Virus record (IMG/VR): IMGVR_UViG_3300023274_000002
Span: 6,633-70,632 of that record
Length of the DNA stretch: 64,000 nt
Strand: one strand, 5' to 3'
Source of the DNA: a virus
A model generated the notes under the pieces. That model was not told the DNA's origin, did not search any database, and worked only from the letters and a program-made list of their open reading frames with translations. Shown piece after piece: positions 31,473-56,836 of the stretch (the first letter of the stretch is position 1; each line of letters starts with the position of its first letter). A program made the position numbers and the translations under genes.

Positions 31473-31486
31473 AGGAGGTGACCACC

Positions 31487-31522
31487 ATGCGCCCCACCTA
31501 CCGCACGATCGACTGGGACTAG
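31487..31522 (+). CDS. 11-aa peptide MRPTYRTIDWD
   Basis: GGAGGTG SD 6 nt before ATG. Confidence 0.35.
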   Translation: MRPTYRTIDWD

Positions 31523-31524
31523 TC

Positions 31525-32015: not shown

Positions 32016-32036
32016 CACCACCCGAGAGGAGACGAC

Positions 32037-33441: not shown

Positions 33442-33545
33442 CGCAGAAGGCCCCGGGCGCTGACCCGGGGCCTTCCTACCGAGAGGAGCGGTGACGAGCC
33501 GCCCCACCTGGACCTTGCGGTCCGAGAGGAGCCCTGATCATAGCC

Positions 33546-34625
33546 ATGACCACTGACAATCTCCTGGACATCGTGCGCACGGCGCCGCCGTGGGCGACCG
33601 GCGCAGCCGCGGGACTGGCCCTGCTGGTACTGATCCTGCTGGCCCGGGCGATCCGCAAGCGCGGCAAGGGCAAGGCCGCGAAGTGGGCCACCGGCGCGGC
33701 CACCGTGCTCGGTATGGCGTGGTCTGCGCAGGGCATGTGGGACACCGCGACGCGCCGCTACGGTCAGCCCGAACAGGTGGCCGTGGTGCTCTTCGTCGTG
33801 TTCGAGGCCTTCCTGGCCGGCCGCATGCTGCGCGCCCACCAGTACCGCGCGGACTTCGCCCGCCGCGGCCGGTTCGTGCAGGCCGTGTGGATCGGTGCCT
33901 GCATCATGGCGCTGGTGGTCGCCCTCGGCGAGGGCTGGCAGCAGGCTCCCGGCCGCCTGGCCATCCCGCTACTGGTGGCCTATGGCTGGTACACCGACCT
34001 GACCGCCGACGACGACCCCGGGCTCAAGCCGAAGACCTCGTGGCGACTGACCCCGCGCCGGATCGGCCTGGCGATCGGCCTGCTTGAGCCTGGCGAGCGT
34101 GACGCGCTGACGATCGACCGCGACCGGCTGCGCGCCAGGATGACCAGACTCGCCTTCCGCATCGAGTTCGGGGCGGACCCGATCAACGACCTGCTGCACC
34201 GGGACGTGCGGCTCGCCAAGCTCAAGACGATCGCTGACGATGCCGACCTGGCCGAGGTCCGCGCCCGACTGGCCCGGATGCGGACCGCGCTGATCGGGCC
34301 GACGCCGGCCGCGACGACCACGCCCGAGGCGAAGCCGAAGGATCCCGCTCGCCCGGGCCGGCCCACCGACGACCGCCTACCGCAGGGTGTGCACAAGCGG
34401 CTAGGCCGACTGCTGCGCGGCGCGGAGCTGGAGGCGGACGCGGTCGCTGTCATGACGAAGTCGATCGGACCGGACCGCCCTCGCGGGTACTCCTGGGTGG
34501 AACTGGCAGGCCTCTACGATCCGGCGCTGCGCCAGCGCAAGGCCGAAGAGTTCGTGGCAGCAGGCCGCAGGCAGGTTCGCTCCGTACAGATCAACGGCGA
34601 GCGCCCGAAAATCACCGTCCCGTAG
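33546..34625 (+). CDS. Spd-like multi-pass membrane protein (actinomycete plasmid spread family-like)
   Basis: 4-5 TM helices, SAQGMW..VLFVVFE, TPRRIGLAIGL..RDAL..DRDR, Pro-rich linker. Confidence 0.55.
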   Translation: MTTDNLLDIVRTAPPWATGAAAGLALLVLILLARAIRKRGKGKAAKWATGAATVLGMAWSAQGMWDTATRRYGQPEQVAVVLFVVFEAFLAGRMLRAHQYRADFARRGRFVQAVWIGACIMALVVALGEGWQQAPGRLAIPLLVAYGWYTDLTADDDPGLKPKTSWRLTPRRIGLAIGLLEPGERDALTIDRDRLRARMTRLAFRIEFGADPINDLLHRDVRLAKLKTIADDADLAEVRARLARMRTALIGPTPAATTTPEAKPKDPARPGRPTDDRLPQGVHKRLGRLLRGAELEADAVAVMTKSIGPDRPRGYSWVELAGLYDPALRQRKAEEFVAAGRRQVRSVQINGERPKITVP

Positions 34626-34647
34626 CCAAACCTTCTCCACTATCCAT

Positions 34648-34711
34648 TACTGTACCCCCAGTAAATCCTTCCGTCTAGGGGTTGCGGTAGGTGAAAACTG
34701 GGGGTACAGTA
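34648..34711. promoter_or_regulatory. 15-bp inverted repeat containing promoter TTGCGG-N17-TACAGT
   Basis: TACTGTACCCCCAGT (34648-34662) / ACTGGGGGTACAGTA (34697-34711). Confidence 0.8.
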
Positions 34712-34737
34712 TGAGTAACGGCAACGAGGGGGACGAG

Positions 34738-34968
34738 ATGAACGCCACTAGCCCGGACGGAACGCAGACGGTCACTTACACCGGAAAGCGCGCCGTGCAG
34801 TTCGCGACGTGGGCCAAGGATCGCAAGTCGATCGACGGCGGGGCCGGCCCGAAGACCGGATGGATTCACCTCGGCTGGACGTCCGCCACCGACCCGATGA
34901 AGGCCGTAGCCGCCGGGCGCAGTACGAACAAATACTTCATGACTTACGAGATCACCCCCGCCGAGTAG
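34738..34968 (+). CDS. cassette gene, hypothetical
   Basis: GAGGGGG SD; terminator at ~34976-35005. Confidence 0.6.
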   Translation: MNATSPDGTQTVTYTGKRAVQFATWAKDRKSIDGGAGPKTGWIHLGWTSATDPMKAVAAGRSTNKYFMTYEITPAE

Positions 34969-35016
34969 GCGCCGAATCCCCGCCCCTGAAGGGGGGCGGG
35001 GATTTTCTCGCTCCCC

Positions 35017-35045
35017 TTGCGCGCATGGTGTTCTGGGGGTACAGT
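35017..35045 (+). promoter_or_regulatory. promoter TTGCGC-N17-TACAGT (leaderless mRNA)
   Basis: ATG 6 nt after the -10. Confidence 0.8.
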
Positions 35046-35051
35046 AAGAGC

Positions 35052-35219
35052 ATGACCTACACGATGATCCTCACCGTTGAGAACGCCACCGGCTCCACCG
35101 CCTACCCCGCCGTCAAGGGAGTGCCCGCCGAGATGATCGAGATCGAGAAGGCCGAGACGGAGCGGGCACTGGTCAAGACCGGCGACATGCGGACATGGAA
35201 GGTCATCGCGGACATTTGA
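35052..35219 (+). CDS. leaderless cassette gene, 55 aa
   Basis: MTYTMILTVENATG..; terminator at ~35236-35264. Confidence 0.6.
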   Translation: MTYTMILTVENATGSTAYPAVKGVPAEMIEIEKAETERALVKTGDMRTWKVIADI

Positions 35220-35285
35220 ATCTCACACCGCCGAGCCCCCGCCGACACAGGTCGGCGGGGGTTTGTGCCATCCGGGTCCACGGGA

Positions 35286-35315
35286 TTGCGGCCCACTCCT
35301 TAGTGGGGGTACAGT
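35286..35315 (+). promoter_or_regulatory. promoter TTGCGG-N18-TACAGT
   Basis: Motif copy. Confidence 0.8.
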
Positions 35316-35345
35316 AATAGCATACCGAGAGAGAGCGAGAGGCCA

Positions 35346-35753
35346 ATGTCCACCGTCCCGAACTGGATCCCGCGAGCGTGGGTGCTGCTGCCGTCCAGTA
35401 GCCGCCTGCGGCCCGACGAGATCGTCCGCACCCTCTCCTGGCGCGCCACGCACACGCAGGTCGTGGTCAGGCTGGACAACCCGAAGCAGACCGCGATGCG
35501 GTTCTGGCTGGATGGCCTGCGTCCGCTCGGGAATGAGAACCACGGGGCCAAGCTGCTCGACGGCGACGACCCGGAGACGCAGGCGATGATCGCCCGCATC
35601 CGCGCGGACGAGGCCGTCGCCGACTTCGAGACGGCCCTGAACACCACGCGCATGGATCGCGTGCGTGGCGACCGCGAGGCTCAGGCTCGCCTGATCGGGC
35701 AGGTGCGCGACGCCGCGACCGCCGCTCTCGCCGCGCTGGAGCCGCTGCTATGA
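35346..35753 (+). CDS. cassette gene, hypothetical
   Basis: GAGAGG SD. Confidence 0.6.
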   Translation: MSTVPNWIPRAWVLLPSSSRLRPDEIVRTLSWRATHTQVVVRLDNPKQTAMRFWLDGLRPLGNENHGAKLLDGDDPETQAMIARIRADEAVADFETALNTTRMDRVRGDREAQARLIGQVRDAATAALAALEPLL

Positions 35754-36463
35754 GCGACGTCAGTTGGGGGTCCGACGAGCCGACAGTGCGCATGGAGCCT
35801 GTTGACCCCTGGGCGGGAGCGCCTGGCGACCGGTCGGCCGCCCCCGAGCCGCGACGGCGCAGAATGGCTTTCGGTCGGGTGTACGAGACGATCGAGGCGG
35901 GCCAGCGCGACGGCGAGCACCGGTACGTGGGGATGACCGAGAAGACCCTTCACCAACGCGTGCACGGCCCGAGCGGCCACACCTCGCCGGCCAGCGTCGC
36001 CAAGGATCCGTGGAAGGCCGGCATCCTGCCGGGCCGAGCCGGGTACCGGCTGCTCGAAACCGTCTACGACACCGGTGACCCCGCCGAGAACGACCGGGCC
36101 CTGCGGCGCGCCGAGGCGTTCTGGATCGACCGTCTGCGCCCCTCGCGCAACGACGTCCGCCCGGTCCGCCCCCCGGTGTCCGCGCGCCCGGTCGCGCCGC
36201 CCCCGCGAGCAGCCCGACCGACGGCCCCCTCGCTGACGTACCGCGAGCGCGCGGCCCGGCGTAAGCGCCGGATGGCCGCCCTGAAGTTCTTCGCCCTGAT
36301 CGCGGCGATGGCCTTGTCCGTGGCCCTGGCGATCCGCGCCGCCGCGCTGCTCGATCTGCCCTGGACGCAAGGTCCCGCGATCCTCGCCGCGGCGGCCGGC
36401 GCGTACGTGGGCTGGAACGTCTTCTGGTTCCTGCACAAGCACCTGCGGAAGCTGACGCGGTGA
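35750..36463 (+). CDS. GIY-YIG-like nuclease domain with two C-terminal TM helices
   Basis: GRVY..RYVGMT..LHQRVHG..LRRAEAFWI..N. Confidence 0.6.
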   Translation: MSDVSWGSDEPTVRMEPVDPWAGAPGDRSAAPEPRRRRMAFGRVYETIEAGQRDGEHRYVGMTEKTLHQRVHGPSGHTSPASVAKDPWKAGILPGRAGYRLLETVYDTGDPAENDRALRRAEAFWIDRLRPSRNDVRPVRPPVSARPVAPPPRAARPTAPSLTYRERAARRKRRMAALKFFALIAAMALSVALAIRAAALLDLPWTQGPAILAAAAGAYVGWNVFWFLHKHLRKLTR

Positions 36464-36468
36464 CCCTC

Positions 36469-36498
36469 TTGCGCTCCCTGGCTTAGTGGGGGTACAGT
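36469..36498 (+). promoter_or_regulatory. promoter TTGCGC-N18-TACAGT
   Basis: Motif copy. Confidence 0.8.
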
Positions 36499-36526
36499 AA
36501 GGGCATACCAAGAGAGAGGCACCGAG

Positions 36527-36754
36527 ATGCGGATCCGGATCACGACCACCGACAACGCCTTTGCCGCCGAGATCGGCTCGGGGCTGGCCGAGGACAAGTC
36601 CACCGTGATCACGATCGCCGACGACAAGGTGGAACGCCTGACGTTCGCAGGCCGGGACATGATCCGGTTCGACATGGCCGCCGTGGCCAGCGGGCGCCTC
36701 CCGAAGGACTGGGGCAACCGCTACACGATGTACCCCGCCACCCGGATCTCCTGA
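36527..36754 (+). CDS. cassette gene, hypothetical
   Basis: GAGAGG SD. Confidence 0.6.
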   Translation: MRIRITTTDNAFAAEIGSGLAEDKSTVITIADDKVERLTFAGRDMIRFDMAAVASGRLPKDWGNRYTMYPATRIS

Positions 36755-36786
36755 GCCAGAGATCGAGAGATTTTCGGCATCCCCTC

Positions 36787-36815
36787 TTGCGGTCCGAATG
36801 AAGTGGGGGTACAGT
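36787..36815 (+). promoter_or_regulatory. promoter TTGCGG-N17-TACAGT
   Basis: Motif copy. Confidence 0.8.
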
Positions 36816-36844
36816 AAGAGCATACCGAGAGAGCGGAGAGCACG

Positions 36845-37039
36845 ATGAACCGGAAGATGAAGGCCCTGCGGAACCGACGGACCATTCTTCAGGCCCTGCG
36901 CATGGATGCCCGCTTCACGCTGCCCTCCGGTGCGATCACGCAGGCCGAGCTGGACGCCCGGATCGTCTCGGCTGAGACCCTGTTCGCCGACCGCGGGTGC
37001 CCGATGACCGCCGCCGACCGTGCCTTTATCGGTCACTGA
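36845..37039 (+). CDS. cassette gene, hypothetical
   Basis: GGAGAG SD. Confidence 0.55.
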   Translation: MNRKMKALRNRRTILQALRMDARFTLPSGAITQAELDARIVSAETLFADRGCPMTAADRAFIGH

Positions 37040-37053
37040 GAAAGGGGAACGGG

Positions 37054-37350
37054 ATGTACACCTCGGGGCGCACCGTCAAGGGCAACGCCAAGCCGACAAC
37101 GGTTGCCAGGGCGACCACCGACGCGCGGCGACTGATCGGCAAGCACCTGCCGACGACTGAGGGGGTCACGGTGAAGACCACGCTGACCGCCGACCCCGTC
37201 ACGCTGGCGCCGCAGTTGCGAACCGTCATCACCTGGCCCGGTTCCATCACTCCCGCGCACGTCCAGTTGGGAATGGCGATCACCCTGCTGCCCGGGTACC
37301 TCTCCGCGATCAACGACGACTGTTCGATCACCTACCTGCGCTCCGCCTGA
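37054..37350 (+). CDS. hypothetical protein
   Basis: AAGGGG SD. Confidence 0.55.
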   Translation: MYTSGRTVKGNAKPTTVARATTDARRLIGKHLPTTEGVTVKTTLTADPVTLAPQLRTVITWPGSITPAHVQLGMAITLLPGYLSAINDDCSITYLRSA

Positions 37351-37365
37351 CCGAGAGGAACTCCC

Positions 37366-37557
37366 ATGGCCAAGCTCATCACCGACCACGACATGCGTGA
37401 CCAGGTCCACGAAACGCTCGGCGACGAGGATGCCTACTTCGACATCACCGCGATCGTGTCCGAGATCCAAAGCATCTACGGCACTGTCGCCATCGACACG
37501 ATCTCCGGCGAGGAGTTCTGGGAGATCGTCAACCGCCACTACATTGACGCCTACTGA
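37366..37557 (+). CDS. small acidic protein
   Basis: GAGAGGA SD; YFDITAIV..EEFWEIV. Confidence 0.6.
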   Translation: MAKLITDHDMRDQVHETLGDEDAYFDITAIVSEIQSIYGTVAIDTISGEEFWEIVNRHYIDAY

Positions 37558-37577
37558 CCGAGAGAGAGACGACGATC

Positions 37578-37733
37578 ATGGCCACGAAGACCAGCCCCCG
37601 CCGTTCCGCCCGCCGCGCCGCCCGCATGCTGGAGCGCGCCGAACTGACCGGGTACGCCACGTTCGGCGCGCCCGACCGGGCCGGCAAGTACGCGACGTTC
37701 GGCCTTCCGTACACCGCCCGGGCCACGCGCTGA
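37578..37733 (+). CDS. small basic protein with YATFG repeat
   Basis: Manual translation; GAGAGAG leader; TGATG coupling to next gene. Confidence 0.5.
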   Translation: MATKTSPRRSARRAARMLERAELTGYATFGAPDRAGKYATFGLPYTARATR

Positions 37734-37912
37734 TGGCAGGTCAGGGAGTGTGCGCCGCCAAGCTCGGTAAGCCGTACCAGATGCGCGAGTGCGGCAAGCC
37801 GGCCATCTACCTGACCGCCGAGGATCTGAGCGGCGTCAAGTACTCCGGGTGGTTTCACGTCGATCCCGAGGACGATCGCGATCACTGGCCCGTCCCGAAG
37901 CACGAACTCTGA
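37733..37912 (+). CDS. small Cys/His protein
   Basis: C..CGKP..WFHVD..H; terminator at ~37923-37948. Confidence 0.5.
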   Translation: MAGQGVCAAKLGKPYQMRECGKPAIYLTAEDLSGVKYSGWFHVDPEDDRDHWPVPKHEL

Positions 37913-37953
37913 AGCGCCACCCGCCCCCGGTCACCGCGACCGGGGGCCTTCTC

Positions 37954-37982
37954 TTGCGGTTGGGGGGTAGTGGGGGTACAGT
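37954..37982 (+). promoter_or_regulatory. promoter TTGCGG-N17-TACAGT (leaderless mRNA)
   Basis: Motif copy, ATG 6 nt downstream. Confidence 0.8.
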
Positions 37983-37988
37983 AGGAGC

Positions 37989-38153
37989 ATGACCGAAACG
38001 ATGCAGCGAATGGCCCTTCCGAGCGTCAAGAACGTGACCGGACTTCCCGTCGCGCACTGGGTAGACAGGATGATCCTGATGCGCGCGGTCCGTCGGCGCA
38101 TGACCAGCATCGAGTACATCGCCTACTGCAAGAGCGCCACGTCCATCCGGTAA
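37989..38153 (+). CDS. leaderless cassette gene, 54 aa
   Basis: Manual translation MTETMQRMALPSVK..; terminator at ~38167-38194. Confidence 0.5.
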   Translation: MTETMQRMALPSVKNVTGLPVAHWVDRMILMRAVRRRMTSIEYIAYCKSATSIR

Positions 38154-38197
38154 GCCAGCGCCACCAGCCCCCGGCCCACGCGGCCGGGGGCTTTCTC

Positions 38198-38226
38198 TTG
38201 CGTCCTGTGGGTAGTGGGGGTACAGT
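38198..38226 (+). promoter_or_regulatory. promoter TTGCGT-N17-TACAGT
   Basis: Motif copy. Confidence 0.8.
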
Positions 38227-38255
38227 AGAGATACGCCGAGCGAGGGAGACGGAAC

Positions 38256-38423
38256 ATGAAGCACTTCGATCACGAGCACAGCAACGCGTTCGATCTGCTG
38301 ACCTGCACCGCCGTTGACGGCCTCGTGGTGCGCGTGGCGCCGACCGAGCGCCCGCATCGTCCGATCGTCGACCGTCCCGCCGTTCCGGGCGCCGCCTCCC
38401 GTCACCGGAGCCGCCGTCGCTGA
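38256..38423 (+). CDS. cassette gene, 55 aa
   Basis: GAGGGAG SD; terminator at ~38437-38464. Confidence 0.5.
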   Translation: MKHFDHEHSNAFDLLTCTAVDGLVVRVAPTERPHRPIVDRPAVPGAASRHRSRRR

Positions 38424-38553
38424 TTCCGATTCCCGCAACCCCCACCCGATCGGGTGGGGGTTTTCGTGCGCCTAGATCGGACATGGTTGGCACGTGACGC
38501 ATGCGATGCGTCGTGCGATAATCTAGGTCATCTAGGGAATGGAGGTTGAACCG

Positions 38554-38775
38554 ATGGATGACGGCGAGAGTGTGGGCGGTGACCACCTGATGACCACGGC
38601 CGAGGTGGCTCGGAGGTTCCGAGTGGACCCGACCACGGTGAACCGGTGGGCCAAGGCCGGCCGGCTCGCCGGCATCCAGGTCTTCCCCGGCGCGCACCGG
38701 CGCTTCCGGGAATCCGAGATCCGTGCACTCCTGGAGGGGGGCGACGATGGCAACGACGACCAGGGTTCGCGGTAG
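38554..38775 (+). CDS. BldC-family / excisionase-like HTH protein
   Basis: LMTTAEVARRFRVDPTTVNRWAKAGRL..GAHRRFRESEIRALL closely resembles Streptomyces BldC. Confidence 0.85.
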   Translation: MDDGESVGGDHLMTTAEVARRFRVDPTTVNRWAKAGRLAGIQVFPGAHRRFRESEIRALLEGGDDGNDDQGSR

Positions 38776-41017
38776 TTCGGCCGCGGCAGAGCGCGAGCAC
38801 CACCGGACCAATCTGTGGGCGCAGCTCGCCCGCTTCGTCGGCCTGTTCCTCTCGCCCGCCCTCGGCCTGCTCGTCGCCTGGCTGCTGCACATCTGGGTGA
38901 TGGGCGTCAGCCTGCACTGGGGACCGATCGACGTCGAGCGCCGGACGCCGGCCGCCGCGCCGTTCGTCGCCGTCGCGATCGTGACCGCGGCGACCATCGG
39001 TCTGTCCGTGCTGGGCTGGCACATGGTCGAGCACCGTAAGCCGGTCCTGCGGTACGCGCTCGCCGGCTCGATCGCCACCGTCGGCGTGCTGTTCGCCGTC
39101 AACCTCGGCGCCGGTCCGACCTACTGGTGGGGCCCGCTGTTCATCGTCGGCTCGTGGGCGGTCGCCGTCGTGTGGGCGATCAACCGGCTCGACGTAGCCC
39201 GCAACGACAAGGGCGGCGACGAGAACCGGGAGGACGGCTTCCTGGAGCGTCACGGCCTGAAGGGCTGGCGCGCCCGCGAGGTGAGGCACGTCGCCGACGC
39301 CAAGGGCCGCCCGGTGGCCACCGAGATCGAGTTCGAGCACGCCGAAGGCGATACGGTCGATCAGCTCCAGGACGCGGTGCCCGCGTTCGAGTCGGCGACC
39401 GGCAGTCCCACCGGCATGTCGGACGCCACCGGCGACGACCGCGCGGACCGCTCGCGTCTGCGCGTCATGCACGTCGACCCGCTCAAGGAGTCGCCGGAGC
39501 TTCCGCCGTTGTCCTGCCCGGGCGGCTCGATCGCCGAGGCGCTGATGATCGGTATGTACAAGACCGGGGATCCGGTCAGGCTCAACATCGCCGGTGGCCC
39601 GGGATTCACGCCTACCTCGATCCTGTGGATGGGCATGACCCGCTCGGGCAAGACGTCCACCGAGAACGAAGCCATCACCGAGATGGAGTCCCGCCGTGAC
39701 GTGGTGCTTCTCTACCTGAACCGCGCCAAGGGCATGCAGGACATCCGCACCGTGATCCCCGGCATCGAGGCCGCCGTGATCGCCGACGAGGCGGACGAGG
39801 GTGGCCTCTATCGGGAAGCGATGGTCCAGCTCAAGAAGATCTTCGGTTACCGCCAGCGCCAGCTCGCCCTGTTCGCCGTCGATGCCTGGACGCCGGAGTG
39901 CTACAGCTCGCCGCCGTGGCGCACCGACGAGAACGGCCGGCGTGTGCAGATGGAGCCGATGCCGTTCCTGTTCGTCCACTTCGGCGAGGCCGACGACATC
40001 CTGCGGGAGGATCGGCGCGGCGAGTCCGTCTACCTCGCCAGCAAGGGCCTGTCGCTCGGCGTGGCCACCTCGTGGTCGCTCCAGCGCGCCGACCACACGA
40101 TGATGCCGACCGGCCTGCGCTACAACATCGGCGCCCGGCTGTGCTTCGGGATCGGCGACAGCGAGTCGGCCGAGTTCGCCCTGACCGACGACGTGATCAA
40201 GGCGGGCGCCCACCCGGAGTACTGGCGCGCGTTCAAGCCCGGCTATTTCTATTTCATCGGCCCGAATGTCGACCCTACCCTCTTCCCCGTTTTCGCCCGC
40301 TCCTACGGCCGCACCGACGACGGCGGTTCGGTGAGCGCGGAATTGCTGCGCCGCAATATGACGTGGGGTCCGAGAATGGCGAAACTGGACGCCGGCTCGG
40401 TGGCCTCCACCGACGGTTGGTGGGAGAAGACGGTGGCCGAGACGGACGCGCTCCGGGCGCGGCTGCTGACTGGCGCCGCACCGCAAGTTGCTCCGCAAAC
40501 CCGTCCCGCAACTCCGCAGACCGAGGAGGAGCAGGATGCGCAAACCGACCGCGAGACCCGAGAGGAGACGGACAAGGAGATGCGCGAAACCACGCAGGTC
40601 GAGGGGGTGGAGCTGTACCCGGACGTCGAGGGGGGTGGCGCGACACCCGAGCACGCAAAGAAGGTCTTCCCGCCCCTGCCCGCAAACGAGGAACTGACGT
40701 GGGAGTCGGAGAAGCCGGCCCCGCGGGACCGCAATGCCGCAGTCGAGGCGCTCCGGCGCGCGCTGCTCGAGCTGTCCCAGGACGCGACTCTGCGGGATCC
40801 GTCTGACCCGACCGGGCGGACCGTGATCCTCAAGCCGGGGATGGTGCACGACCGGTACCCGTTCCGGTCGCGGCCCTGGTTCACCGAGGCCCTGATCGAC
40901 ATGGCCACGGGCAAGCTCGACGCCGGCAACGGGCTGGTGCTGACGGCCATCACGGAGCCCGGTTTCGAGCCTGGTTCGTACCGGCTCCAAATCGTTCCCG
41001 ATGGGCACATTCGGTGA
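38747..41017 (+). CDS. traB: TraB-type FtsK/SpoIIIE conjugative DNA translocase
   Basis: Four N-terminal TM helices, Walker A GMTRSGKT, SLQRA, AGAHPEYW..KPGYFY, C-terminal wHTH with RSRPW, as in Streptomyces plasmid TraB. Confidence 0.85.
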   Translation: MATTTRVRGSSAAAEREHHRTNLWAQLARFVGLFLSPALGLLVAWLLHIWVMGVSLHWGPIDVERRTPAAAPFVAVAIVTAATIGLSVLGWHMVEHRKPVLRYALAGSIATVGVLFAVNLGAGPTYWWGPLFIVGSWAVAVVWAINRLDVARNDKGGDENREDGFLERHGLKGWRAREVRHVADAKGRPVATEIEFEHAEGDTVDQLQDAVPAFESATGSPTGMSDATGDDRADRSRLRVMHVDPLKESPELPPLSCPGGSIAEALMIGMYKTGDPVRLNIAGGPGFTPTSILWMGMTRSGKTSTENEAITEMESRRDVVLLYLNRAKGMQDIRTVIPGIEAAVIADEADEGGLYREAMVQLKKIFGYRQRQLALFAVDAWTPECYSSPPWRTDENGRRVQMEPMPFLFVHFGEADDILREDRRGESVYLASKGLSLGVATSWSLQRADHTMMPTGLRYNIGARLCFGIGDSESAEFALTDDVIKAGAHPEYWRAFKPGYFYFIGPNVDPTLFPVFARSYGRTDDGGSVSAELLRRNMTWGPRMAKLDAGSVASTDGWWEKTVAETDALRARLLTGAAPQVAPQTRPATPQTEEEQDAQTDRETREETDKEMRETTQVEGVELYPDVEGGGATPEHAKKVFPPLPANEELTWESEKPAPRDRNAAVEALRRALLELSQDATLRDPSDPTGRTVILKPGMVHDRYPFRSRPWFTEALIDMATGKLDAGNGLVLTAITEPGFEPGSYRLQIVPDGHIR

Positions 41018-41157
41018 CACCTGTCAGGTGACACCCGGACGCCCGCCCCGGCCGTCTGGCGTATAGGGGGGATCGCTTCTGACACCCCCCTATCTGACAC
41101 CTGACACCCCCTATCTGACACCCGGCACTGATCACACCCCGTATACATCTGACACCC
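41015..41157 (+). repeat. clt-like locus of co-oriented TGACACC repeats
   Basis: Exact TGACACC at 41015, 41029, 41080, 41095, 41102, 41116, 41150 plus TCACACC at 41132, directly after the traB stop. Confidence 0.75.
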
Positions 41158-41169
41158 CGAGGAGAGGGC

Positions 41170-41514
41170 ATGGTTGACGGTTACGAGGGCATCTGGACGC
41201 CCCACAACTCCAAGGAGTTCGAGGCTCGGCAGGCGGACATCCGGCACCACTTCCTAGGCAACTCGATGCGCCTGGTGGAAGTCGGCGTGGACCTGCGGCG
41301 CGAGCTGCCCCGCGCCAAGAACGTCTCCGGCTCGCCGTGGGCGTTCGGTGCCGATCTGAAGATCGCGGCATGGCAGATCAATCGGCAGTTTGCGCAAGCC
41401 GCCGCATCGCAGGTCGCCAGCGCCGCGGCCATCGCCCGGGCGTACGAGATCTTCCTGGGCAGCTTCCACAACCGCAAGTCCGGCTCGAGTCAGGGCCGGT
41501 TCGACGCAGCCTGA
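41170..41514 (+). CDS. TraA-like plasmid transfer protein
   Basis: Helical, AWQINRQFAQAAASQ..AAAIARAYEIF resembles TraA of pSN22/pJV1-type plasmids; adjacent to traB. Confidence 0.5.
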   Translation: MVDGYEGIWTPHNSKEFEARQADIRHHFLGNSMRLVEVGVDLRRELPRAKNVSGSPWAFGADLKIAAWQINRQFAQAAASQVASAAAIARAYEIFLGSFHNRKSGSSQGRFDAA

Positions 41515-41583
41515 TCACGCAAACCTGCGGACCGCAGGTTCGTGCCTGCGGTCCGCAAACCTCACCGAGAAGGAGTCCGCAAC

Positions 41584-41901
41584 ATGGCTAAGACGTTCGC
41601 GCAACTGTCCGCAGAGATGCAGGCCGTCCAGACCGAGGTCGTCAAGCTGATCGGTCGGGTGGAGGCGATGTACAGCCACGGCCGCACCCCCGACCTGTTC
41701 GACGCCGCGCTGCGCACCGCTGGCATGACAGAGGGGCAGATCGGCGAATACGGCAGTGCCCTGCGGTCGTATTTCCGATCGCTGGACGATGAATTGACAA
41801 GCGCGTCGAAAACGCTCGGCGCCCTGGCCCACATCGTTTCGGCCGCCGACCACAAAGCGCGCCGCGGCAATTCGGGGTCGCTGGTTCTGGAAAGCCGATG
41901 A
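41584..41901 (+). CDS. helical hypothetical protein (transfer module)
   Basis: AAGGAG SD. Confidence 0.55.
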   Translation: MAKTFAQLSAEMQAVQTEVVKLIGRVEAMYSHGRTPDLFDAALRTAGMTEGQIGEYGSALRSYFRSLDDELTSASKTLGALAHIVSAADHKARRGNSGSLVLESR

Positions 41902-42197
41902 GCACCCGCACGACCGCCGAAGCTACGGCGTGGGCGGCAGCCTGGGTCCGGCGACTGAAGGTGATCCAGGAGGAGATCGAGCAGTTCTTGCCGACCGTCG
42001 CGGCCGACGGTCTGGCCGATGGACTGGTGGCAGCCGGCGTGCGGCCCAGCCTGGCCAATCAGTACGCCGGGGCGATGGCGCGCCACCGCCGGTCCGCTGT
42101 CGGCAATCTGTCCGACGCGGTGCGTGACCTGGACGCCGTGATCACGGAACTGCGAGACGCACAGGGGCGCGCGGGGAGAGTGATGCCGCTGAGGTGA
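41898..42197 (+). CDS. helical hypothetical protein (transfer module)
   Basis: ATGA coupling. Confidence 0.55.
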   Translation: MSTRTTAEATAWAAAWVRRLKVIQEEIEQFLPTVAADGLADGLVAAGVRPSLANQYAGAMARHRRSAVGNLSDAVRDLDAVITELRDAQGRAGRVMPLR

Positions 42198-42240
42198 GCC
42201 GCCTCCGTGCTGTAATGGGCGTGACGAGAGGCAGGAGACG

Positions 42241-42621
42241 ATGCTCAGCAAGGGCGAGTGGAAGCAGGAAGCGGAGCGGGCCGCGGCGCGCAAGATGGGC
42301 GAGGACAACGCCGGCTGGTTCTTCTTTCGGCGCTTCCTGGCCGCACCGCTCGCGGTGGTCGGTCTGGCTGCGGCGGTCGCGCTCGGCGTGAGGTGGCTGT
42401 GGAGCCGGGCGACGGATGCGGTGGGAGGCTTCTCCGCTCCCGACAGCTCCACCAGTTCCGCCGCCTGGTTCGTTCTCGGTGGCCTGGTCATCGTCACGGC
42501 GGTGGCGTTCCGTCCGCGCGAGATGCCGACCCCCGCACACATCCTGCTGCTGAAGCTGATCGTGTTCGGCCTGGCCTGGCTGGGCACGTTGGCCTACCTG
42601 ATCGCCTACTGGCTTTCCTGA
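42241..42621 (+). CDS. membrane protein (Spd-like candidate)
   Basis: Three TM segments; hairpin at ~42633-42663 follows. Confidence 0.55.
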   Translation: MLSKGEWKQEAERAAARKMGEDNAGWFFFRRFLAAPLAVVGLAAAVALGVRWLWSRATDAVGGFSAPDSSTSSAAWFVLGGLVIVTAVAFRPREMPTPAHILLLKLIVFGLAWLGTLAYLIAYWLS

Positions 42622-42730
42622 TCCCCCTGACGAAAGCCCCCCGCTCACCGGGCGGGGGGCTTTCGCATGGGCGCACCCGTCACCTAGCATGAGACGCATC
42701 CGATGCGAATCGGGCACGAGAGGAGACGAC

Positions 42731-43198
42731 GTGACGAGTAGGGAACTGGTGCCCCGGGTGGAGACCATCGTGGGCACCCAGCATGACCTGGAGATGGTGC
42801 TGCGTGTCGCCGCGCATCGCGGCCGCCTGCTGACCGAGGTGGAGAAGATCCCCGTCCGCGAGATCGGCCCGGGTCTGTACGCGATCAAGGCTCGCATGCT
42901 GATGCCCGACGTGAAGGTGCCGCTGCGCACCCGCCTGCGCAAGTGGGATCGGTCGCACCCGATCATGTCGGCGATGCTGAAGGCGATGGCGTTCGCGGTC
43001 GCCTCCTGCGCCCTGATCGTCGGCGCGATCCTGGCCGCCATCGCGATGGTCCGCCACGCGATGGCGGGTGTCGACGCCCGCCCCATCGTCGGGGGATTCG
43101 TCTTCGCCGTGATCGTGCTGCTCATCCTGGCCAACCGTCTCAACCACGCCGGCGCATGCCCCGGCGTTGCCGTGCACTGCCAGGGGTGCAAGCACTAG
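42731..43198 (+). CDS. membrane protein with C-terminal CPG..HC.GC motif
   Basis: GAGGAG SD before GTG; two TM helices. Confidence 0.55.
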   Translation: MTSRELVPRVETIVGTQHDLEMVLRVAAHRGRLLTEVEKIPVREIGPGLYAIKARMLMPDVKVPLRTRLRKWDRSHPIMSAMLKAMAFAVASCALIVGAILAAIAMVRHAMAGVDARPIVGGFVFAVIVLLILANRLNHAGACPGVAVHCQGCKH

Positions 43199-43312
43199 CT
43201 TGCGATACCATCGCAGGACGGCGATGGTCGAGCCCGCTGGTCCCCCCGGGGGAGCGGTGGGTCTACCCGGAAAGGCCGGGCGTCGTAGAGCGCAAGTCGA
43301 CCAGCTAAAGAC

Positions 43313-43364: not shown

Positions 43365-43616
43365 TCAGAGGTTGGCGCGAGCCTTCTCCCGCTTGGCCTT
43401 GAACGCGGTCACGGCGCCGAGCGCGGTCGCCAGCGCAGCGGATGCCACGGTGGTCCACCATCCGCTCCAGCCGGACGTGTCCACGTTGGTCAGCGCGTCG
43501 ATCACGCCGTCAAGCACGCCGTCGAACACGACGGTGAGCCCGCCGGTGACGAGCAGGCCGAGCTTGGAGTCGTTGAAGAGTCGGTTCTTCCCGTTGGGCT
43601 GTTCCGTGCTGGGCAT
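43365..43616 (-). CDS. holin-like membrane protein
   Basis: Two hydrophobic segments, basic C-term, end of lysis cassette. Confidence 0.55.
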   Translation of the reverse strand: MPSTEQPNGKNRLFNDSKLGLLVTGGLTVVFDGVLDGVIDALTNVDTSGWSGWWTTVASAALATALGAVTAFKAKREKARANL

Positions 43617-44218
43617 TACGCCTCCTGTGGTTTGCGGCCCCGCCAGGGCCGGCGCCCGGTGAAAGGCCAGGCGAGTATGAGAGAGATCAGCGCGCCGAGC
43701 GCGCCCGGGATCAGGATCGGCGCCGACGCGAGCAGGATCCCGAAGACGGCCGGCGCGTCCCGCCAGAACTGCCGGCCGTACGACCGGCGCGAGTTGAAGC
43801 ACGACGCGAGCCGGACCGCGGCCCACATCTGCCACCGCGTCAGCCACGACACCCCGAGGTCTTCCATCGCTCGCCGGAAGATCCCATCCGTCTCGCGAGA
43901 CGTGGCGGGAGGCCGGGGCAGGTAGCCGGTCGGCCGCCCGCGGAAGCGGTACTCCCGTGCCCACGCGGCCAGCTCGACCAGCAACCAGTCGTGCAGCACA
44001 GCCGCGCGGGTGTACGGGCCGTACGGGCGGACCTTCCAGATCAGGAACCGCGGCACCGTGGCGAAGTCGGTCACGAAGCCGACGGGCACGGTGAACGTGT
44101 CGCCCTCGGTGCCGGTCCAGATCAGCGGCGCCAGCACCCGCCACGTGTCGTCGGTGCACTCCTGGACGCTGAGCCGCGAGTCGAACGCGTCCGGCCGCGG
44201 TGTGGTCAACATAGTCAC
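43616..44218 (-). CDS. DUF1353 family protein
   Basis: VPVGFVTDFATVPR..AAVLHDWL..D.IFRRAM..V...R..MWAAVR. Confidence 0.8.
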   Translation of the reverse strand: MTMLTTPRPDAFDSRLSVQECTDDTWRVLAPLIWTGTEGDTFTVPVGFVTDFATVPRFLIWKVRPYGPYTRAAVLHDWLLVELAAWAREYRFRGRPTGYLPRPPATSRETDGIFRRAMEDLGVSWLTRWQMWAAVRLASCFNSRRSYGRQFWRDAPAVFGILLASAPILIPGALGALISLILAWPFTGRRPWRGRKPQEA

Positions 44219-44233
44219 GGGTCTATCTTCCCA

Positions 44234-44620
44234 TCACGTCCGGCCGGCGTGCGGGGTGATCTCCGGCGGGGTCTGATCGAAGTGCCGGAGCCAGTCTTCG
44301 ATCGTCACGCCGGGCATGCGCGCGTACATAAGCATCTCGGTGTGCCGCCGGTAGGCGTCCGACAGCGCCTCGTTCATGGCGTTGACCTGAACGCTCAGTT
44401 CGGTCGCCTGATTCTTGACCCGGTGCAACTCCTGCCGGGTCTCGGCGAGTTCGGCCTTGGTCTCGGCCACCTCGTGCCGCAGGTCCCGGATCCGAGTGAC
44501 GTCCAGGTTCTGCGCCTGCACGGCGGTCGCCCGGCGCGCGTTGCGGCTGACCAGGAGGATGCTCGCCGCGGCGATCAGGAGTGAGATCAGGGTCAGGACA
44601 TCCTTGGTCTCAAGCGTCAT
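44234..44620 (-). CDS. membrane-anchored coiled-coil lysis accessory protein
   Basis: N-terminal TM plus coiled coil. Confidence 0.55.
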   Translation of the reverse strand: MTLETKDVLTLISLLIAAASILLVSRNARRATAVQAQNLDVTRIRDLRHEVAETKAELAETRQELHRVKNQATELSVQVNAMNEALSDAYRRHTEMLMYARMPGVTIEDWLRHFDQTPPEITPHAGRT

Positions 44621-45011
44621 GATCCTGATCCTTACCCATCCCGGTCGGCTCGGGCCATCCCGCGATCCGCCACACCGCCCACGCGAAAAAGCCCCAGATG
44701 CCGATCGAGCTGAGCGGTACGTCGCCGAGCACGCAGCCGAAGACGCAGCCGAGCCCCCACACGACCTTGATGCTGATCGCTGCGTAGAAGCCGGGCAGGC
44801 TCGGCCGCCGGAACGCGTAGAACAGGCAGATGACCCCGACCGCGGCCCACGCCACGGCCCAGAAGAAGATGGGCACCACGGCGTCGAACCAGCGCGAGGT
44901 GCCCGACGGCGGCCCGGTCAGCAGCCAGGTTGCGTACACGAAGTCCACCAGCGAGAACGCCACCAGGAACGATCCCCGGAAGCCGACGCTCCGGTGGAGC
45001 TTGAGGATCAC
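44610..45011 (-). CDS. four-TM membrane protein (holin-like)
   Basis: Hydrophobic; follows endolysin. Confidence 0.6.
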   Translation of the reverse strand: MILKLHRSVGFRGSFLVAFSLVDFVYATWLLTGPPSGTSRWFDAVVPIFFWAVAWAAVGVICLFYAFRRPSLPGFYAAISIKVVWGLGCVFGCVLGDVPLSSIGIWGFFAWAVWRIAGWPEPTGMGKDQDHDA

Positions 45012-46627
45012 CCGGCCATCCGCGCGATGCGCGGCCACCGGTCGCCGAACAGAGCGGCGAGCGCCTGCGCGGCCTGCTCGTCGCTGACGCTGGAATCGCC
45101 AAGCGCGTTGAGCACCTCGAGCGGTACGCCGGCCACGGCGCGCGACAGTTCATCGGATCGCCGGTTCACCTCGGCCATGATGCGATCGGCTTCGGCGTCG
45201 TCGTCGGTGACTTTGCGAAGCGTGGCCTGCGCGGTGGCGCCCACGGTGCGCAGAGCGATCCCCAGGTCGCGGATGACCGCCCACGCGTTGTCGCGGGGCG
45301 CTCCGTCCTTCATCCCGTTGGGGATGCCCTGATCGAGGGTGAGCCGGCCGATCAGCGATGTCGGAGTGCCGTCCGCCTGCTTGGACGACGCGAGCACCGC
45401 CCTGAGCCGAGCCTCGAACTCGTCGCCGATCTGATCCAGGGTGATGGCCATCTCGTCGTCCTCCAATACGCCGATCTCCGTGAAGTATCGCTTGAGCAGC
45501 CGGGTGAGCGAATCGCTCTTCTCTGCGTCGCGGAACCGGCTGAGGTGCGTGTGGCTCGTGTGGCTGCTGTCGCCGGTCGTGCGGTGGCCGAGCCGGTCGT
45601 ACCGCTTGACCACATCGCCGTCGGGCGAGTAGATCACCTCGCGGATGTCCGCCGTGTCCGCAGTCCCGGCCTTGCACTGCGCGACGACCCAGATCGAGAA
45701 CGTCCGCAGGTTGTGCCTCTTGCCGTCCACCGTGATCTCGAACCAGCCGAGGTCGAGCGCCGCAGCGGCGTTGGTCAGCCCGTTGCGGTCGCGCGAGGAT
45801 TCGACGATGGAGTACGCCGTCTCCTTCAGCGCGTCCTTGCCGAGGTGGTACGACGTGCCGGACTTCGCGTGCGAGTCGTCGCCGACGATGCCCACGGCCG
45901 CCGGTGCGATCGTGAATCCCGCCTTCTTGAGCGTGGTGATGTAGAACGTCCGGGCGTCGAGCAACGACTGTGGCGCGTAGCTCATGCCGGGCCTCCCGAG
46001 TGTGAGATCGCGCCACACCGTCTCGTCGCGGATGGCGCTCTTGCTGACCTTTATCGTGCCACCCGGCAGCGGACCGACGGCGTACTGCATAACGGCCAGC
46101 GTCGGCCATCCACCGTAGCCCGCCGTCCAGTGCTCCGATGCGTCGCCGGGGTAAGTGCCGAGATAGCTGGTGTTCGGCGGCGCCCACAGGTACGGGCTGA
46201 GGTCGTGCACGTCCCAGCCCTTGCGGGCCGCCCACCACCAGTCGCCGGTGTAGAGCGCGACCGGCCGGCCGAGTAGCTGCGTCATCCGCTCCAGGTAACT
46301 CCGCACCGAGGCCAGCGTTGGTGCCGGGTCGGACTCGACGTCCATCTGGTGAGCGGTCCCGCCGAGCAGGCCGAGCGACACGATCCGCCGGTATGCGTAC
46401 TCGGCCTGATCCTCGCCGGGCGCGTCGGCGGTCAGGTAGTGGAACGTCGAGATGCCGAGGCCGATTCGGCGCGCGTCGAGCGCCCACCATGCGACGTTGG
46501 GATGCACGCTCTTCACGCCGAGCCCGTGGGAGATCTTCAGGTTTACCGCGCCGAATCCGGCCGCCTTGACGTCCTCGGCCCGCAGGGCGCCCTGGTAGCT
46601 GGCGACGTCGACCAGGTGAAGGGTCAC
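45008..46627 (-). CDS. endolysin: GH25 muramidase + putative Zn-peptidase domain + helical C-term
   Basis: VDVASYQG, HQMDVE, LYTG.WW, MQY; then GIVGDDSH..SYH..AALD..HTSHTHLS. Confidence 0.8.
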   Translation of the reverse strand: MTLHLVDVASYQGALRAEDVKAAGFGAVNLKISHGLGVKSVHPNVAWWALDARRIGLGISTFHYLTADAPGEDQAEYAYRRIVSLGLLGGTAHQMDVESDPAPTLASVRSYLERMTQLLGRPVALYTGDWWWAARKGWDVHDLSPYLWAPPNTSYLGTYPGDASEHWTAGYGGWPTLAVMQYAVGPLPGGTIKVSKSAIRDETVWRDLTLGRPGMSYAPQSLLDARTFYITTLKKAGFTIAPAAVGIVGDDSHAKSGTSYHLGKDALKETAYSIVESSRDRNGLTNAAAALDLGWFEITVDGKRHNLRTFSIWVVAQCKAGTADTADIREVIYSPDGDVVKRYDRLGHRTTGDSSHTSHTHLSRFRDAEKSDSLTRLLKRYFTEIGVLEDDEMAITLDQIGDEFEARLRAVLASSKQADGTPTSLIGRLTLDQGIPNGMKDGAPRDNAWAVIRDLGIALRTVGATAQATLRKVTDDDAEADRIMAEVNRRSDELSRAVAGVPLEVLNALGDSSVSDEQAAQALAALFGDRWPRIARMAG

Positions 46628-46983
46628 GGGTGCGCGATGTCGTAATCCCGGATCTTCTGCTGAAGCACTTCCAGGGAGTCGGACATGGTCGCGCCGTACA
46701 TCGCCAGGTCTTCCGGTCGCACCTGGCCGAGGATCCAGCCGGGCCACCCGCCGGTCATGTCGATGGCCGCGTTGAGCCTGGCTTGCCACGCGGCATCGGT
46801 GGCCACGGCGGGATTGAGATCTTGGATCACCTTCATCACCATCGCGATCAGCGACAGCGTGGACAGGTTCGTGTTGTAGAGCGACTTCTCGCCACCCATG
46901 ATGTCGGTTCCCAGACCGTCGCGGACGACGGTGCGCTGAGCGCCGAGCAGGTACGGCACGAAGTCGGCCGACTTGGCTACCAC
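46624..46983 (-). CDS. hypothetical protein
   Basis: AAGGAG SD. Confidence 0.55.
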   Translation of the reverse strand: MVAKSADFVPYLLGAQRTVVRDGLGTDIMGGEKSLYNTNLSTLSLIAMVMKVIQDLNPAVATDAAWQARLNAAIDMTGGWPGWILGQVRPEDLAMYGATMSDSLEVLQQKIRDYDIAHP

Positions 46984-46995
46984 GATGTTCTCCTT

Positions 46996-47532
46996 CTAGA
47001 AGGGGAGCACGACCATGTTGCGCTGCGACCACGTGCCGTTGGTGCTGGTCACGCGGTACTTCGAGGTGAACGTGTTGGATCCGGCGGTCAGCGTGGGCAT
47101 GCTTACCCGGCTGGCGCCGATGATTTTGCTGGCCGCCGATGCGTCGTTGACCACAGCCACGTCGTCGGCCGCCGCGACCGTCGTCGCCCCGGAGACGGCG
47201 TAGCTCATGTACGCCCGGATGCCGGTCGTGTCGGTGGTCAGCACGCAGCCGATCGCCACCAGCGCCTTGGGCCCGGTGGTCACGGTGACCGCGGGGCCCG
47301 CGGTGGCCAGGTCGCCGTACGACGTGATCGCGCTGCTCTGGCCGGTGCTCACCGTGGCCGTCGACGGGATGCGCTCGGCGATCGAGTTCGCGGCCGTGCT
47401 GGCGAACATCGAGCCGGCCGCGGTCGCCTTGGCGGCCGGCGTCTCCAGCATGTTGTCCCGGACGCTGGCGTTCCACTGCGCCGCCGTCAAGGTCGCGTTG
47501 CTGACCGCAGTCAGCGGGGTAGACCAGGCCAT
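46996..47532 (-). CDS. minor tail / fibre protein
   Basis: MAWSTPLTAV..LTAAQWNASVRDN. Confidence 0.7.
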   Translation of the reverse strand: MAWSTPLTAVSNATLTAAQWNASVRDNMLETPAAKATAAGSMFASTAANSIAERIPSTATVSTGQSSAITSYGDLATAGPAVTVTTGPKALVAIGCVLTTDTTGIRAYMSYAVSGATTVAAADDVAVVNDASAASKIIGASRVSMPTLTAGSNTFTSKYRVTSTNGTWSQRNMVVLPF

Positions 47533-47987: not shown

Positions 47988-47995
47988 CTCGTCTC

Positions 47996-53954: not shown

Positions 53955-53959
53955 GACGT

Positions 53960-55130: not shown

Positions 55131-55210
55131 GGATCACTCCTAGGGTTCGGCCCCTCTGGGGGCACACCGAAGGCCCGATCCCGCTCGTGCGGGTCGGGTG
55201 GTCTAATGGG

Positions 55211-56834: not shown

Positions 56835-56836
56835 GG

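Follow-up and report, generated by a model that had tools for sequence, protein, structure and literature searches.

The DNA considered here is a window of 64,000 nucleotides comprising bases 6633-70632 of the 70,632-base IMG/VR record IMGVR_UViG_3300023274_000002, which comes from leaf litter and is rated 100% complete by CheckV. Within this window, a gene for a TraB-family translocase and the clt-type repeat array adjacent to it are an integral part of a tailed phage genome. With a probability of roughly 0.6, the pair constitutes a functional TraB-clt DNA-transfer module that is integral to, and vertically inherited in, a complete tailed phage genome of ~70.5 kb. Its likeliest function would be to pump the phage's own double-stranded DNA (dsDNA), directed by sequence, from one hyphal compartment or cell to another. 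A preliminary description, made from the sequence alone, had presented the stretch as a tailed phage with a TraB/clt module. The translocase, the array, the phage genes and their integral arrangement hold up; of the labels given to neighbouring genes, TraA-like does not, and Spd-like is a lead only. Table 1 lists the positions of the features discussed.

When the translocase gene product was compared with profile and structure libraries, a check that had been proposed at the outset, it grouped with plasmid TraB and not with chromosomal FtsK. The NCBIfam model plasmid_TraB (NF041214) matches residues 50-680 over profile positions 20-585 of 639 (E 1.7e-73, 248.2 bits), and the sole other NCBIfam match at E<=0.1 is thyX (E 0.058, 12.9 bits). 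A tblastn search of PLSDB returned 49 records, of which 44 are from Streptomyces, 3 from Nonomuraea and 1 each from Amycolatopsis and Thermobispora. Many of the matches carry a traB annotation, including those on pJV1 (E 7e-22), pWTY27 (3e-16) and pCQ3 (7e-26), and BLASTP against the pWTY27 TraB gives 2e-29. Identity to plasmid TraBs ranges from 26 to 32%, with 30% for the TraB of pCQ3. Every feature first read from the 756-residue sequence, namely four transmembrane helices, the Walker A motif GMTRSGKT, the sequence FVHFGEA and a C-terminal winged helix with RSRPW, was recovered. Hydropathy places four hydrophobic segments at residues 38-145, and an AlphaFold2 model built from 32 homologues (predicted local distance difference test score, pLDDT, of 80) has helices at 23-52, 71-93, 99-122 and 128-155 that are long enough for membrane spanning.

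The best Foldseek matches to the model in the Protein Data Bank (PDB) are the motor domains of FtsK (2iut, 2ius and 6t8o; E ~1e-14, TMt 0.64-0.71), followed by TcpA and EccC/EssC, and a profile made from the homologue alignment finds FtsK among PDB entries at 1.5e-5. That profile alignment places K302 on the Walker A Lys, G413-E414 on the Walker B Asp-Glu and SLQRAD on ATQRPS. The landmarks of the motor are GMTRSGKT at residues 295-302 with K302, FVHFGEA at 408-414 with the catalytic E414, and QR at 446-447. In an alignment of 32 sequences that reaches down to 27% identity, G296, G301, K302, E414, Q446 and R447 are invariant or nearly so. The invariance of K302, E414 and Q446/R447, together with many other motor residues, argues for an ATPase under selection. 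The Walker B region had been flagged as non-canonical, which is confirmed: in place of hhhhDE it reads FVHFGEAD, with Gly (G413) at the Asp position. Within the same alignment, the residue before E414 is Glu or Asp in distant members and E414 itself is invariant. The Tra protein of pWTY27, which is transfer-proficient, has Glu-Glu at the Walker B Asp-Glu place, so the Asp is not conserved even in proven members of the family; the Gly of the window protein appears as a further departure beyond this Glu-Glu.

The C-terminal winged helix extends over residues ~660-750 and contains FRSRPWF at 705-711. When folded alone on 16 sequences, the last 105 residues yield a pLDDT of 89 and the topology H-b-H-H-b-b, and the top 50 VIA neighbours of this domain are nearly all winged-helix domains (Z 5.5-7.1). 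Foldseek gave no match to the domain at E<=0.001, and FtsK-gamma was not singled out among its structural neighbours. As judged from the sequence and the models, the protein is a TraB-family, FtsK-fold, membrane-anchored translocase with a winged-helix C-terminus and belongs to a distinct subfamily.

The second component of the putative module is a tract of seven co-oriented TGACACC copies beside the translocase gene, a repeat tract that had been noticed from the start and that uses the same word as the proven clt of pWTY27. The first copy overlaps the traB stop codon, the spacings are irregular (14, 51, 15, 7, 14 and 34 nt), and the tract, which begins at the stop codon, ends 14 nt short of the next gene. 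Seven of the ten TGACACC copies in the window fall within the array, all on the plus strand, leaving only three elsewhere in 64 kb, and all 5 window copies of CTGACACC lie within 41079-41156. No other 250-nt window (0 of 5060, both strands) reaches seven copies of any non-simple 7-mer. In the published account of pWTY27 (PMC3583192), clt consists of 16 bp inside the tra gene plus 159 bp and holds four TGACACC (DC1) and CCCGCCC (DC2) repeats as well as inverted repeats. Transfer requires this clt, and band-shift (electrophoretic mobility shift assay, EMSA) and footprint experiments show the Tra protein binding to it. In the plasmid sequence itself, the tra stop codon is covered by a TGACACC, and an inverted copy and a CCCCTAGG motif are present as well. 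Counterparts are present in the window as the copy over the stop codon, the palindrome CACCTGTCAGGTG, a CCCGCCC and TATAGGGGGG, so that the two tracts have in common the TGACACC word, the CCCGCCC copy, the inverted copy, a CCCTAGG/TATAGGGG motif and the repeat over the stop codon.

A co-oriented array of short repeats directly after the traB stop codon is found in all 16 viral loci compared, that is, in the window and 15 others. In 8 of these loci no more than 1.3% of other windows reach the exact-7-mer count of the array; in 7 the share is 1.7-4.3%. Some relatives use the array words CCTGACGC or GGAACAGC, and the repeat word covaries with the motif that starts the last helix of the winged helix. 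SRPW is paired with (C)TGACAC/G, SPAW with GGGTGAsA, DRSW with GGTGTGCGG (the reverse complement of the pJV1-type CCGCACACC), T/A-S-S-W with GGAACAGC and AQRPA with CCGACCAA. A repeat word that changes together with the winged-helix motif is what is predicted of a cognate pair of protein and site.

The word by itself is a poor guide. A scan of genome contigs for a triple CTGACACC yielded at least 120 loci (L022-L141) in many phyla and one archaeon, and only three of those 120, the Streptomyces loci L023, L081 and L090, adjoin a TraB gene. Among 24 inspected loci, which were chosen mostly from named genera and are not a random sample, 22 are tandem repeats with a period of 7-24, a few of them less regular and some apparently coding. 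Since most such loci are tandem repeats, the word alone is not diagnostic, and it is the irregular spacing and the place after traB that count. A separate observation concerns a CTATAGGGG or CCCTAGG-like motif that sits between the inverted and direct repeat copies in nearly all clt-like tracts: at 41062-41071 in the window and likewise in L003-L008, L012, L017, L018, L020 (pWTY27) and L021 (pCQ3). This motif might serve as a promoter element or as an additional binding site.

The surrounding genome is that of a tailed phage. Gene calling with a codon-usage score trained on long open reading frames (ORFs) gave 105 genes in the window, and Pfam and PHROG searches of the window and of the 6.6 kb to its left show a full siphovirus-type gene set. 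The structural genes comprise a T4-type large terminase, a Mu-type portal, a MuF-like protein, a decoration protein and a capsid; the tail genes comprise a connector, a tail tube, a 1241-aa tape measure and minor tail proteins; and the lysis side has a GH25 lysin and small membrane proteins. The replication and recombination arm encodes a primase-polymerase, a helicase, a sliding clamp, a methylase, Erf, and RecE-like and DnaQ-like exonucleases. The 6632 bases to the left of the window hold the remainder of the terminase gene, the portal, MuF-like and decoration genes and the 5' part of the capsid gene. The ends of the record overlap by 157 nt, of which 156 are identical (one mismatch), and the capsid gene spans that junction, so the map is circular at ~70,475 bp, as expected of a headful-packaging phage or a circular replicon. 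Host DNA flanks neither side of the ~70.5-kb record, and the G+C content is even (0.65-0.73) with no step at the arm borders. The HTH (helix-turn-helix) and traB genes belong to a plus-strand arm that diverges from the minus-strand replication and recombination arm at 31029/31185 and converges on the tail and lysis arm at 43198/43365. Paired palindromes in the divergent region resemble, by their sequence, the operator of a switch.

Related genomes share this organization. A database search returned 91 homologue clusters, nearly all of metagenome proteins, and 20 of the 91 are on contigs of 64-76 kb. A single-protein query of viral contigs gave no match, and a query with the alignment gave 17 IMG/VR loci. 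The seven nearest (L003-L009; TraB identity 32-53%) form the close set, and the related complete genomes measure 65-83 kb. Throughout this set the plus arm is syntenic, with the HTH gene, traB, a 359-aa membrane protein, 248-aa and 194-aa proteins and small membrane proteins, and it is flanked by a RecE-like exonuclease on one side and by tail and lysis genes on the other. This synteny is kept across independent assemblies at protein identities of 39-57%. A homologue of the terminase large subunit gene (terL) accompanies TraB in all seven close records, the co-occurrence that the preliminary description had suggested looking for, with 62-75% identity in six and 37% in one. Four of the close records have direct terminal repeats and are 93-100% complete by CheckV. 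The identity ranks of terL and TraB agree (nearest G001 and G002, farthest G006), which fits common descent of gene and genome.

The five genomes searched lack tyrosine integrase (PF00589), large serine recombinase (PF07508) and ParB_N; the control for the last of these gave a positive in 10 of 14. Pfam scans of the 105 and a further 7 ORFs revealed no Rep or Par family, ParA not having been searched separately across the relatives. The hallmark of an actinomycete integrative and conjugative element (AICE), an integrase with att ends, is missing: the circular map without host flanks has neither an integrase nor att-like ends. Contigs from other sequencing runs (leaf litter, root and soil), some identical and some variant, bridge 31017-31504, 40869-41516 and 42595-43968, which cover both arm junctions and the passage from traB through the array into the following gene. 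No RNA run is listed among those that contain the stretch. These Logan contigs are short and of low depth, and joints with sides of 20-24 letters were disregarded as metagenome cross-matches. The synteny, the circular closure, the bridging contigs, the terminase in seven of seven records and the lack of integrase and ParB together rule out, as far as sequence data can, a chimera or a recently inserted element with its own att ends. Of the three outcomes that the preliminary description had named as refuting it, two have thus failed to appear: this one and a grouping with non-conjugative FtsK ATPases.

A quick maximum-likelihood tree of 46 TraBs splits the clade of the window from the rest at a Shimodaira-Hasegawa-like approximate likelihood-ratio test (SH-aLRT) value of 100. 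Of the 33 rows in the window clade, 26 are labelled phage by similarity, and only some come from contigs of full length. The opposite group comprises pWTY27, pCQ3, a named Streptomyces TraB and nine TraBs from further viral records. Five records of this opposite group were searched, and four of them also carry an HK97 capsid or a tape measure, so TraB-clt pairs and phage genes occur together in more than one lineage. One of them, G012 (59.7 kb), has terminal repeats and combines an HK97 capsid with a plasmid-type TraB, which hints at a second independent acquisition of TraB by a phage. Three proviruses of that group may instead be an AICE beside a prophage.

How the module might work can be pictured from the plasmid systems. 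At hyphal tips or septal cross-walls, TraB hexamers would be seated in the membrane, and there the C-terminal winged helix would load TraB onto the TGACACC array of the phage's own dsDNA. The motor would then pump phage DNA into a neighbouring compartment or hypha of a mycelial actinomycete host, perhaps assisted by the small membrane proteins of the plus arm, as Spd proteins assist plasmids. Such a route from cell to cell would be independent of virions and would operate beside them, either in a plasmid-like carrier state or during lytic growth; we infer that the element may spread both by virions and by TraB. A bolder and rather doubtful extension is that widespread uncultured tailed phages of mycelial soil actinomycetes, in which genes for lysogeny or partition are not recognisable, use their own TraB-clt pump during infection and push replicating genomes through cross-walls and into touching hyphae. 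If true, this would be a bacterial counterpart of the movement proteins of plant viruses, virion-free spread would be a regular part of a phage life cycle, and receptors and extracellular defences would be bypassed.

Phage spread is normally thought to depend on virions, and in mycelial bacteria, whose body is compartmented, a single infected compartment is a small prize. A phage TraB and its own loading site have persisted while these genomes, which have no integrase or partition genes, diverged deeply; this persistence suggests that phages themselves are selected for direct DNA pumping from one compartment or hypha to another. Previously such pumping was seen only in a few cultured plasmid-phage hybrids. 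The module also provides a concrete, clonable test object of one gene plus ~150 bp for an idea that was voiced in passing for SpdB2 homologues.

Several observations weigh against a working transfer module. The score of 248 bits is far under the equivalog cut-off of 800 bits for NF041214, and no Pfam family, FtsK_SpoIIIE included, matches the TraB-like protein at E<=0.05, which also means that Pfam-based FtsK_SpoIIIE screens miss this TraB subfamily. The Walker B Asp is replaced by Gly across the whole clade in the 32-sequence alignment (by Ala in two sequences), and the tree separates the clade from plasmid TraBs so clearly that its function could have diverged. The array of the remaining locus, L019, is not distinctive, as 29% of other windows match its exact-7-mer count; the exact-7-mer test is itself crude, rating even the proven clt of pWTY27 as unremarkable (94 of 302 windows). 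The covariation of repeat word and winged helix is supporting evidence and not proof because the lineages are few and related. Homologues of Spd, TraA, Rep and Par were not found in the NCBIfam, Pfam and tblastn searches. Among 50,697 records of cultured phages, neither tblastn with the protein nor blastn with 38500-43200 gave anything at 1e-5, and at E<=1 tblastn gave only two spurious Clostridium phage matches. A pattern scan of 185,579 species genomes produced 177 pattern matches but no relative and no prophage or plasmid copy, within the limits of what the pattern can detect.

Other functions can be assigned to the same parts. The pair may, though this is unlikely, be a segregation device: for a phage carried outside the chromosome, TraB-clt would stand in for a partition system and pump the phage DNA through sporulation or vegetative septa, ensuring its inheritance by spores and compartments. 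FtsK-family pumps are generally known to clear septa in sporulating actinomycetes, integrase, large serine recombinase and ParB are missing from all five complete genomes, and an operator-like site separates the divergent plus and early lytic arms, a location at which temperate phages keep their maintenance genes. A carrier state has left no sign, however, with no relative found as a plasmid or prophage in the pattern-limited search of species genomes, and as a mechanism segregation overlaps with transfer, since the pump and the site are the same. There is also a slim chance that the ATPase is crippled and that the protein serves as a sequence-specific membrane anchor or a regulator of the genes flanking the array, which would tether replicating phage DNA or repress the downstream operon. 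The clade-wide G413 would be explained in this manner, as would the position of the last TGACACC copy, immediately before the following gene's ribosome-binding site. A mere anchor, though, would not need the Walker A Lys, the catalytic Glu and the QR that are invariant down to 27% identity, and the Glu-Glu of the transfer-proficient pWTY27 Tra indicates that the canonical Asp is no requirement of the family.

Action on DNA other than the phage's own is similarly improbable. The translocase would then mobilise the host chromosome or resident plasmids and AICEs that share TGACACC, or exclude or hijack them, as a takeover or competition function. TGACACC is indeed common to pWTY27 and the genomic loci L081 and L090, whose arrays adjoin TraB genes ~71% identical to a named Streptomyces TraB, and in PHROG, phage proteins resembling FtsK/SpoIIIE fall in the category 'moron, auxiliary metabolic gene and host takeover'; but in every relative the array is on the phage's own genome beside the gene, a cis-acting arrangement for self-transfer. 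Recognition words common to phages and plasmids could nevertheless let them mobilise each other. Finally, the record is a metagenome assembly that IMG/VR classes as linear, and the whole arrangement might be an artefact, either a chimeric assembly or an AICE or plasmid inserted in a phage contig. This is very improbable in view of the 157-nt end overlap, the even G+C across the arm borders, the synteny at 39-57% protein identity in independent assemblies, the junctions bridged by contigs of other studies and the lack of integrase and att-like ends.

In its parts, the putative TraB-clt transfer module resembles the TraB/clt systems of Streptomyces plasmids and AICEs (pSVH1, pJV1, pIJ101 and pWTY27), which likewise use a single membrane-anchored FtsK-like translocase with a C-terminal DNA-recognition domain and short co-oriented cis repeats directly after the gene. 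Unlike plasmid TraBs, the phage protein is only 26-32% identical to them, occupies a separate branch of the tree, scores below the equivalog cut-off and has Gly instead of Glu or Asp before the catalytic Glu. The setting differs as well, in that the carrier is a 70-kb phage genome in which no GntR-type TraR/KorA, recognisable Spd or TraA, or Rep was found.

The novelty implied for the combination of phage and tra genes does not stand, as plasmid-phages with tra loci are already in print or in PLSDB. The plasmid pZL12 is described as combining conjugal transfer with a plasmid and lytic phage cycle (Zhong et al. 2010), and pSLE1 is syntenic with pZL12 and carries ParA/ParB and two integrases. 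The PLSDB entry of pCQ3 has annotated traA and traB beside capsid and tail genes. Each of these three, like the present phage, unites a Tra translocase and the morphogenesis genes of a tailed phage on a single replicon. They are, however, 85-90-kb plasmids of cultured strains with ParA/ParB, whereas the present lineage is known from metagenomes only and has ParB and integrases in none of five genomes; with pCQ3 in particular, only TraB (30%) and terL are detectably shared. The module is thus less surprising than first thought given these plasmid-phage precedents, and its lineage differs from them in having its own TraB subfamily and no par, rep or int found. Within a literature coverage that mostly excludes subscription journals, no paper was found that describes TraB and clt together in a tailed phage lacking plasmid functions. 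As an observation on the plasmid side, pWTY27 (L020, NC_013667.2), a 14-kb conjugative plasmid, has at 10642-12102, ~0.6 kb past clt, a gene with the PGAP annotation 'phage major capsid protein'; this is another plasmid-phage link.

Cultured phages offer partial parallels. Thoma et al. 2015 (mBio) suggest that phage DNA might spread with the help of the SpdB2 homologues that phiC31 and VWB carry. Those two phages are reported to have a Spd homologue and not TraB plus clt, whereas in the present phage the translocase and the site are found and a Spd homologue is not demonstrable. FtsK/SpoIIIE-like genes have been noted in the cultured Streptomyces phages Geonosis, Jaresh and AndoPrime, with function only speculated upon by the authors. 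These are translocase-family genes too, but the available excerpts describe no clt, and the window protein has no tblastn similarity to any of the 50,697 cultured phage records at E<=1, apart from the two spurious Clostridium phage matches.

Table 1. Positions of the features discussed, numbered from the first base of the window
Feature	Position	Strand	Remarks
Terminase large subunit gene, 5' part	2..850	-	Pfam/PHROG
Two adjacent 12-bp palindromes, CCTTGCCCAAGG and CCTTGCGCAAGG	31066..31089		In the 155-nt divergent intergenic region between early minus arm and plus arm
Whole plus-strand arm, 22 called genes	31185..43198	+	Syntenic in related genomes
359-aa protein	33546..34625	+	Three N-terminal hydrophobic segments, charged C-terminal part; kept in lineage
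Terminator-like hairpin	37923-37947		Strong; upstream of promoter-like site
Terminator-like hairpin	38166-38192		Strong; upstream of promoter-like site
Perfect 26-nt palindrome	38437-38462		Immediately before the promoter-like site of HTH-traB
Promoter-like site GTGACG-17-GATAAT with TG	38494..38522	+	Ahead of HTH-traB; consensus scan, 1 found vs 0.8 expected
HTH gene, 78 aa	38539..38775	+	HTH_17/BldC-like (excisionase-type); overlaps traB by 29 nt
traB-like gene, 756 aa	38747..41017	+	NCBIfam, tblastn, Foldseek
clt-like array, seven co-oriented TGACACC	41015..41156	+	Starts at 41015, 41029, 41080, 41095, 41102, 41116 and 41150
Palindrome CACCTGTCAGGTG	41018-41030		Within clt-like array
CCCGCCC	41042-41048		Within clt-like array
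TATAGGGGGG	41062-41071		Within clt-like array
Three small non-membrane genes (114, 105 and 99 aa)	41170..42197	+	Downstream of array; no family assigned
Membrane protein, 126 aa	42241-42621	+	Three hydrophobic segments; kept in 5 of 7 close loci
Membrane protein, 146 aa	42758-43198	+	Two hydrophobic segments; kept in 3 of 7 close loci
Phage late arm	43365..64000	-	Holin-like membrane genes, minor tail genes and connector genes, among others (Pfam/PHROG)
GH25 lysin	45008-46627	-	Pfam/PHROG
Tape measure	50053-53778	-	Pfam/PHROG
Tail tube	54549-55121	-	Pfam/PHROG
Capsid gene, 3' part	63688-63978	-	Pfam/PHROG

Immediately before traB, the HTH gene encodes a protein that matches Pfam HTH_17 (E 9.9e-13, 48.6 against a cut-off of 27 bits) and phrog_66 (3.8e-10). 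It had been described as BldC-like; the HTH_17 membership and the place before traB stand, whereas its NCBIfam HTH_BldC (NF033787) score of 72.2 bits (E 2.2e-20) falls short of the 77-bit cut-off. The gene lies directly upstream of traB in six of the seven close loci, with 40-60% identity, and its product is likely a regulator or accessory factor. The 26-nt palindrome and the two hairpins ahead of the promoter-like site set HTH-traB apart as a transcription unit of its own.

The first small gene after the array (41170-41514, 114 aa) is kept in four of the seven close loci. The TraA-like label proposed for it was dropped: it has no NCBIfam match at E<=0.1 and no tblastn match at E<=0.1 to the annotated traA of pWTY27 or pCQ3, and traA sits upstream of traB in both plasmids whereas this gene sits downstream. 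Hydropathy agrees with the several membrane genes that had been noted in the operon. The two membrane proteins at its end have no family in Pfam, PHROG or NCBIfam and are candidates for spread or pore functions.

The 359-aa protein had been labelled Spd-like. It has no match in Pfam, NCBIfam or PHROG, its tblastn search gave nothing in phages or plasmids at E<=0.1, and the DUF2637 and SpdB models match none of five orthologues at E<=1, with the reservation that the local Pfam may lack PF27079 and PF27080. What speaks for the assignment is a language-model resemblance alone, with atlas feature scores of 0.91 for a DUF2637 (15%) cluster and 0.83-0.85 for SpdB_N/HTH_SpdB_C clusters. Its build, a membrane N-terminus and a helical C-terminus, fits SpdB2 loosely, and the protein is best regarded as an unproven SpdB-like candidate and a lead.

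A few further observations were made on single genes. The terminase of G002 (G002:C1:31453-34098, the record of L004) aligns as two segments (query 4-115 and 112-560) of a single 889-aa open frame, and the interruption looks like an intein-type insert. For pCQ3 (L021 26163-27890), the terminase likewise aligns as two segments, one on either side of an annotated HNH gene, and that of G004 (G004:C1:44728-46317) has one in-frame TGA. In the early arm of the window, a 441-aa protein (2896-4221, minus strand) matches Pfam Globin (PF00042) over residues 301-423 (E 5.1e-5, 24.2 bits against a 22-bit cut-off), an unusual domain in a phage gene. A 194-aa protein of the plus arm (35879-36463, plus strand) is kept in the lineage, has a C-terminal membrane segment and matches SLATT_1 weakly (NCBIfam E 1.5e-4, 21.7 bits against a 41-bit cut-off; Pfam E 0.022). 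In contig X3, which comes from another run, window positions 34626-35032 and 36464-36767 are replaced by 19 and 9 other letters, respectively. The replaced stretches contain the small genes 34711-34968 and 36527-36754, which indicates that small genes of the plus arm differ between strains.

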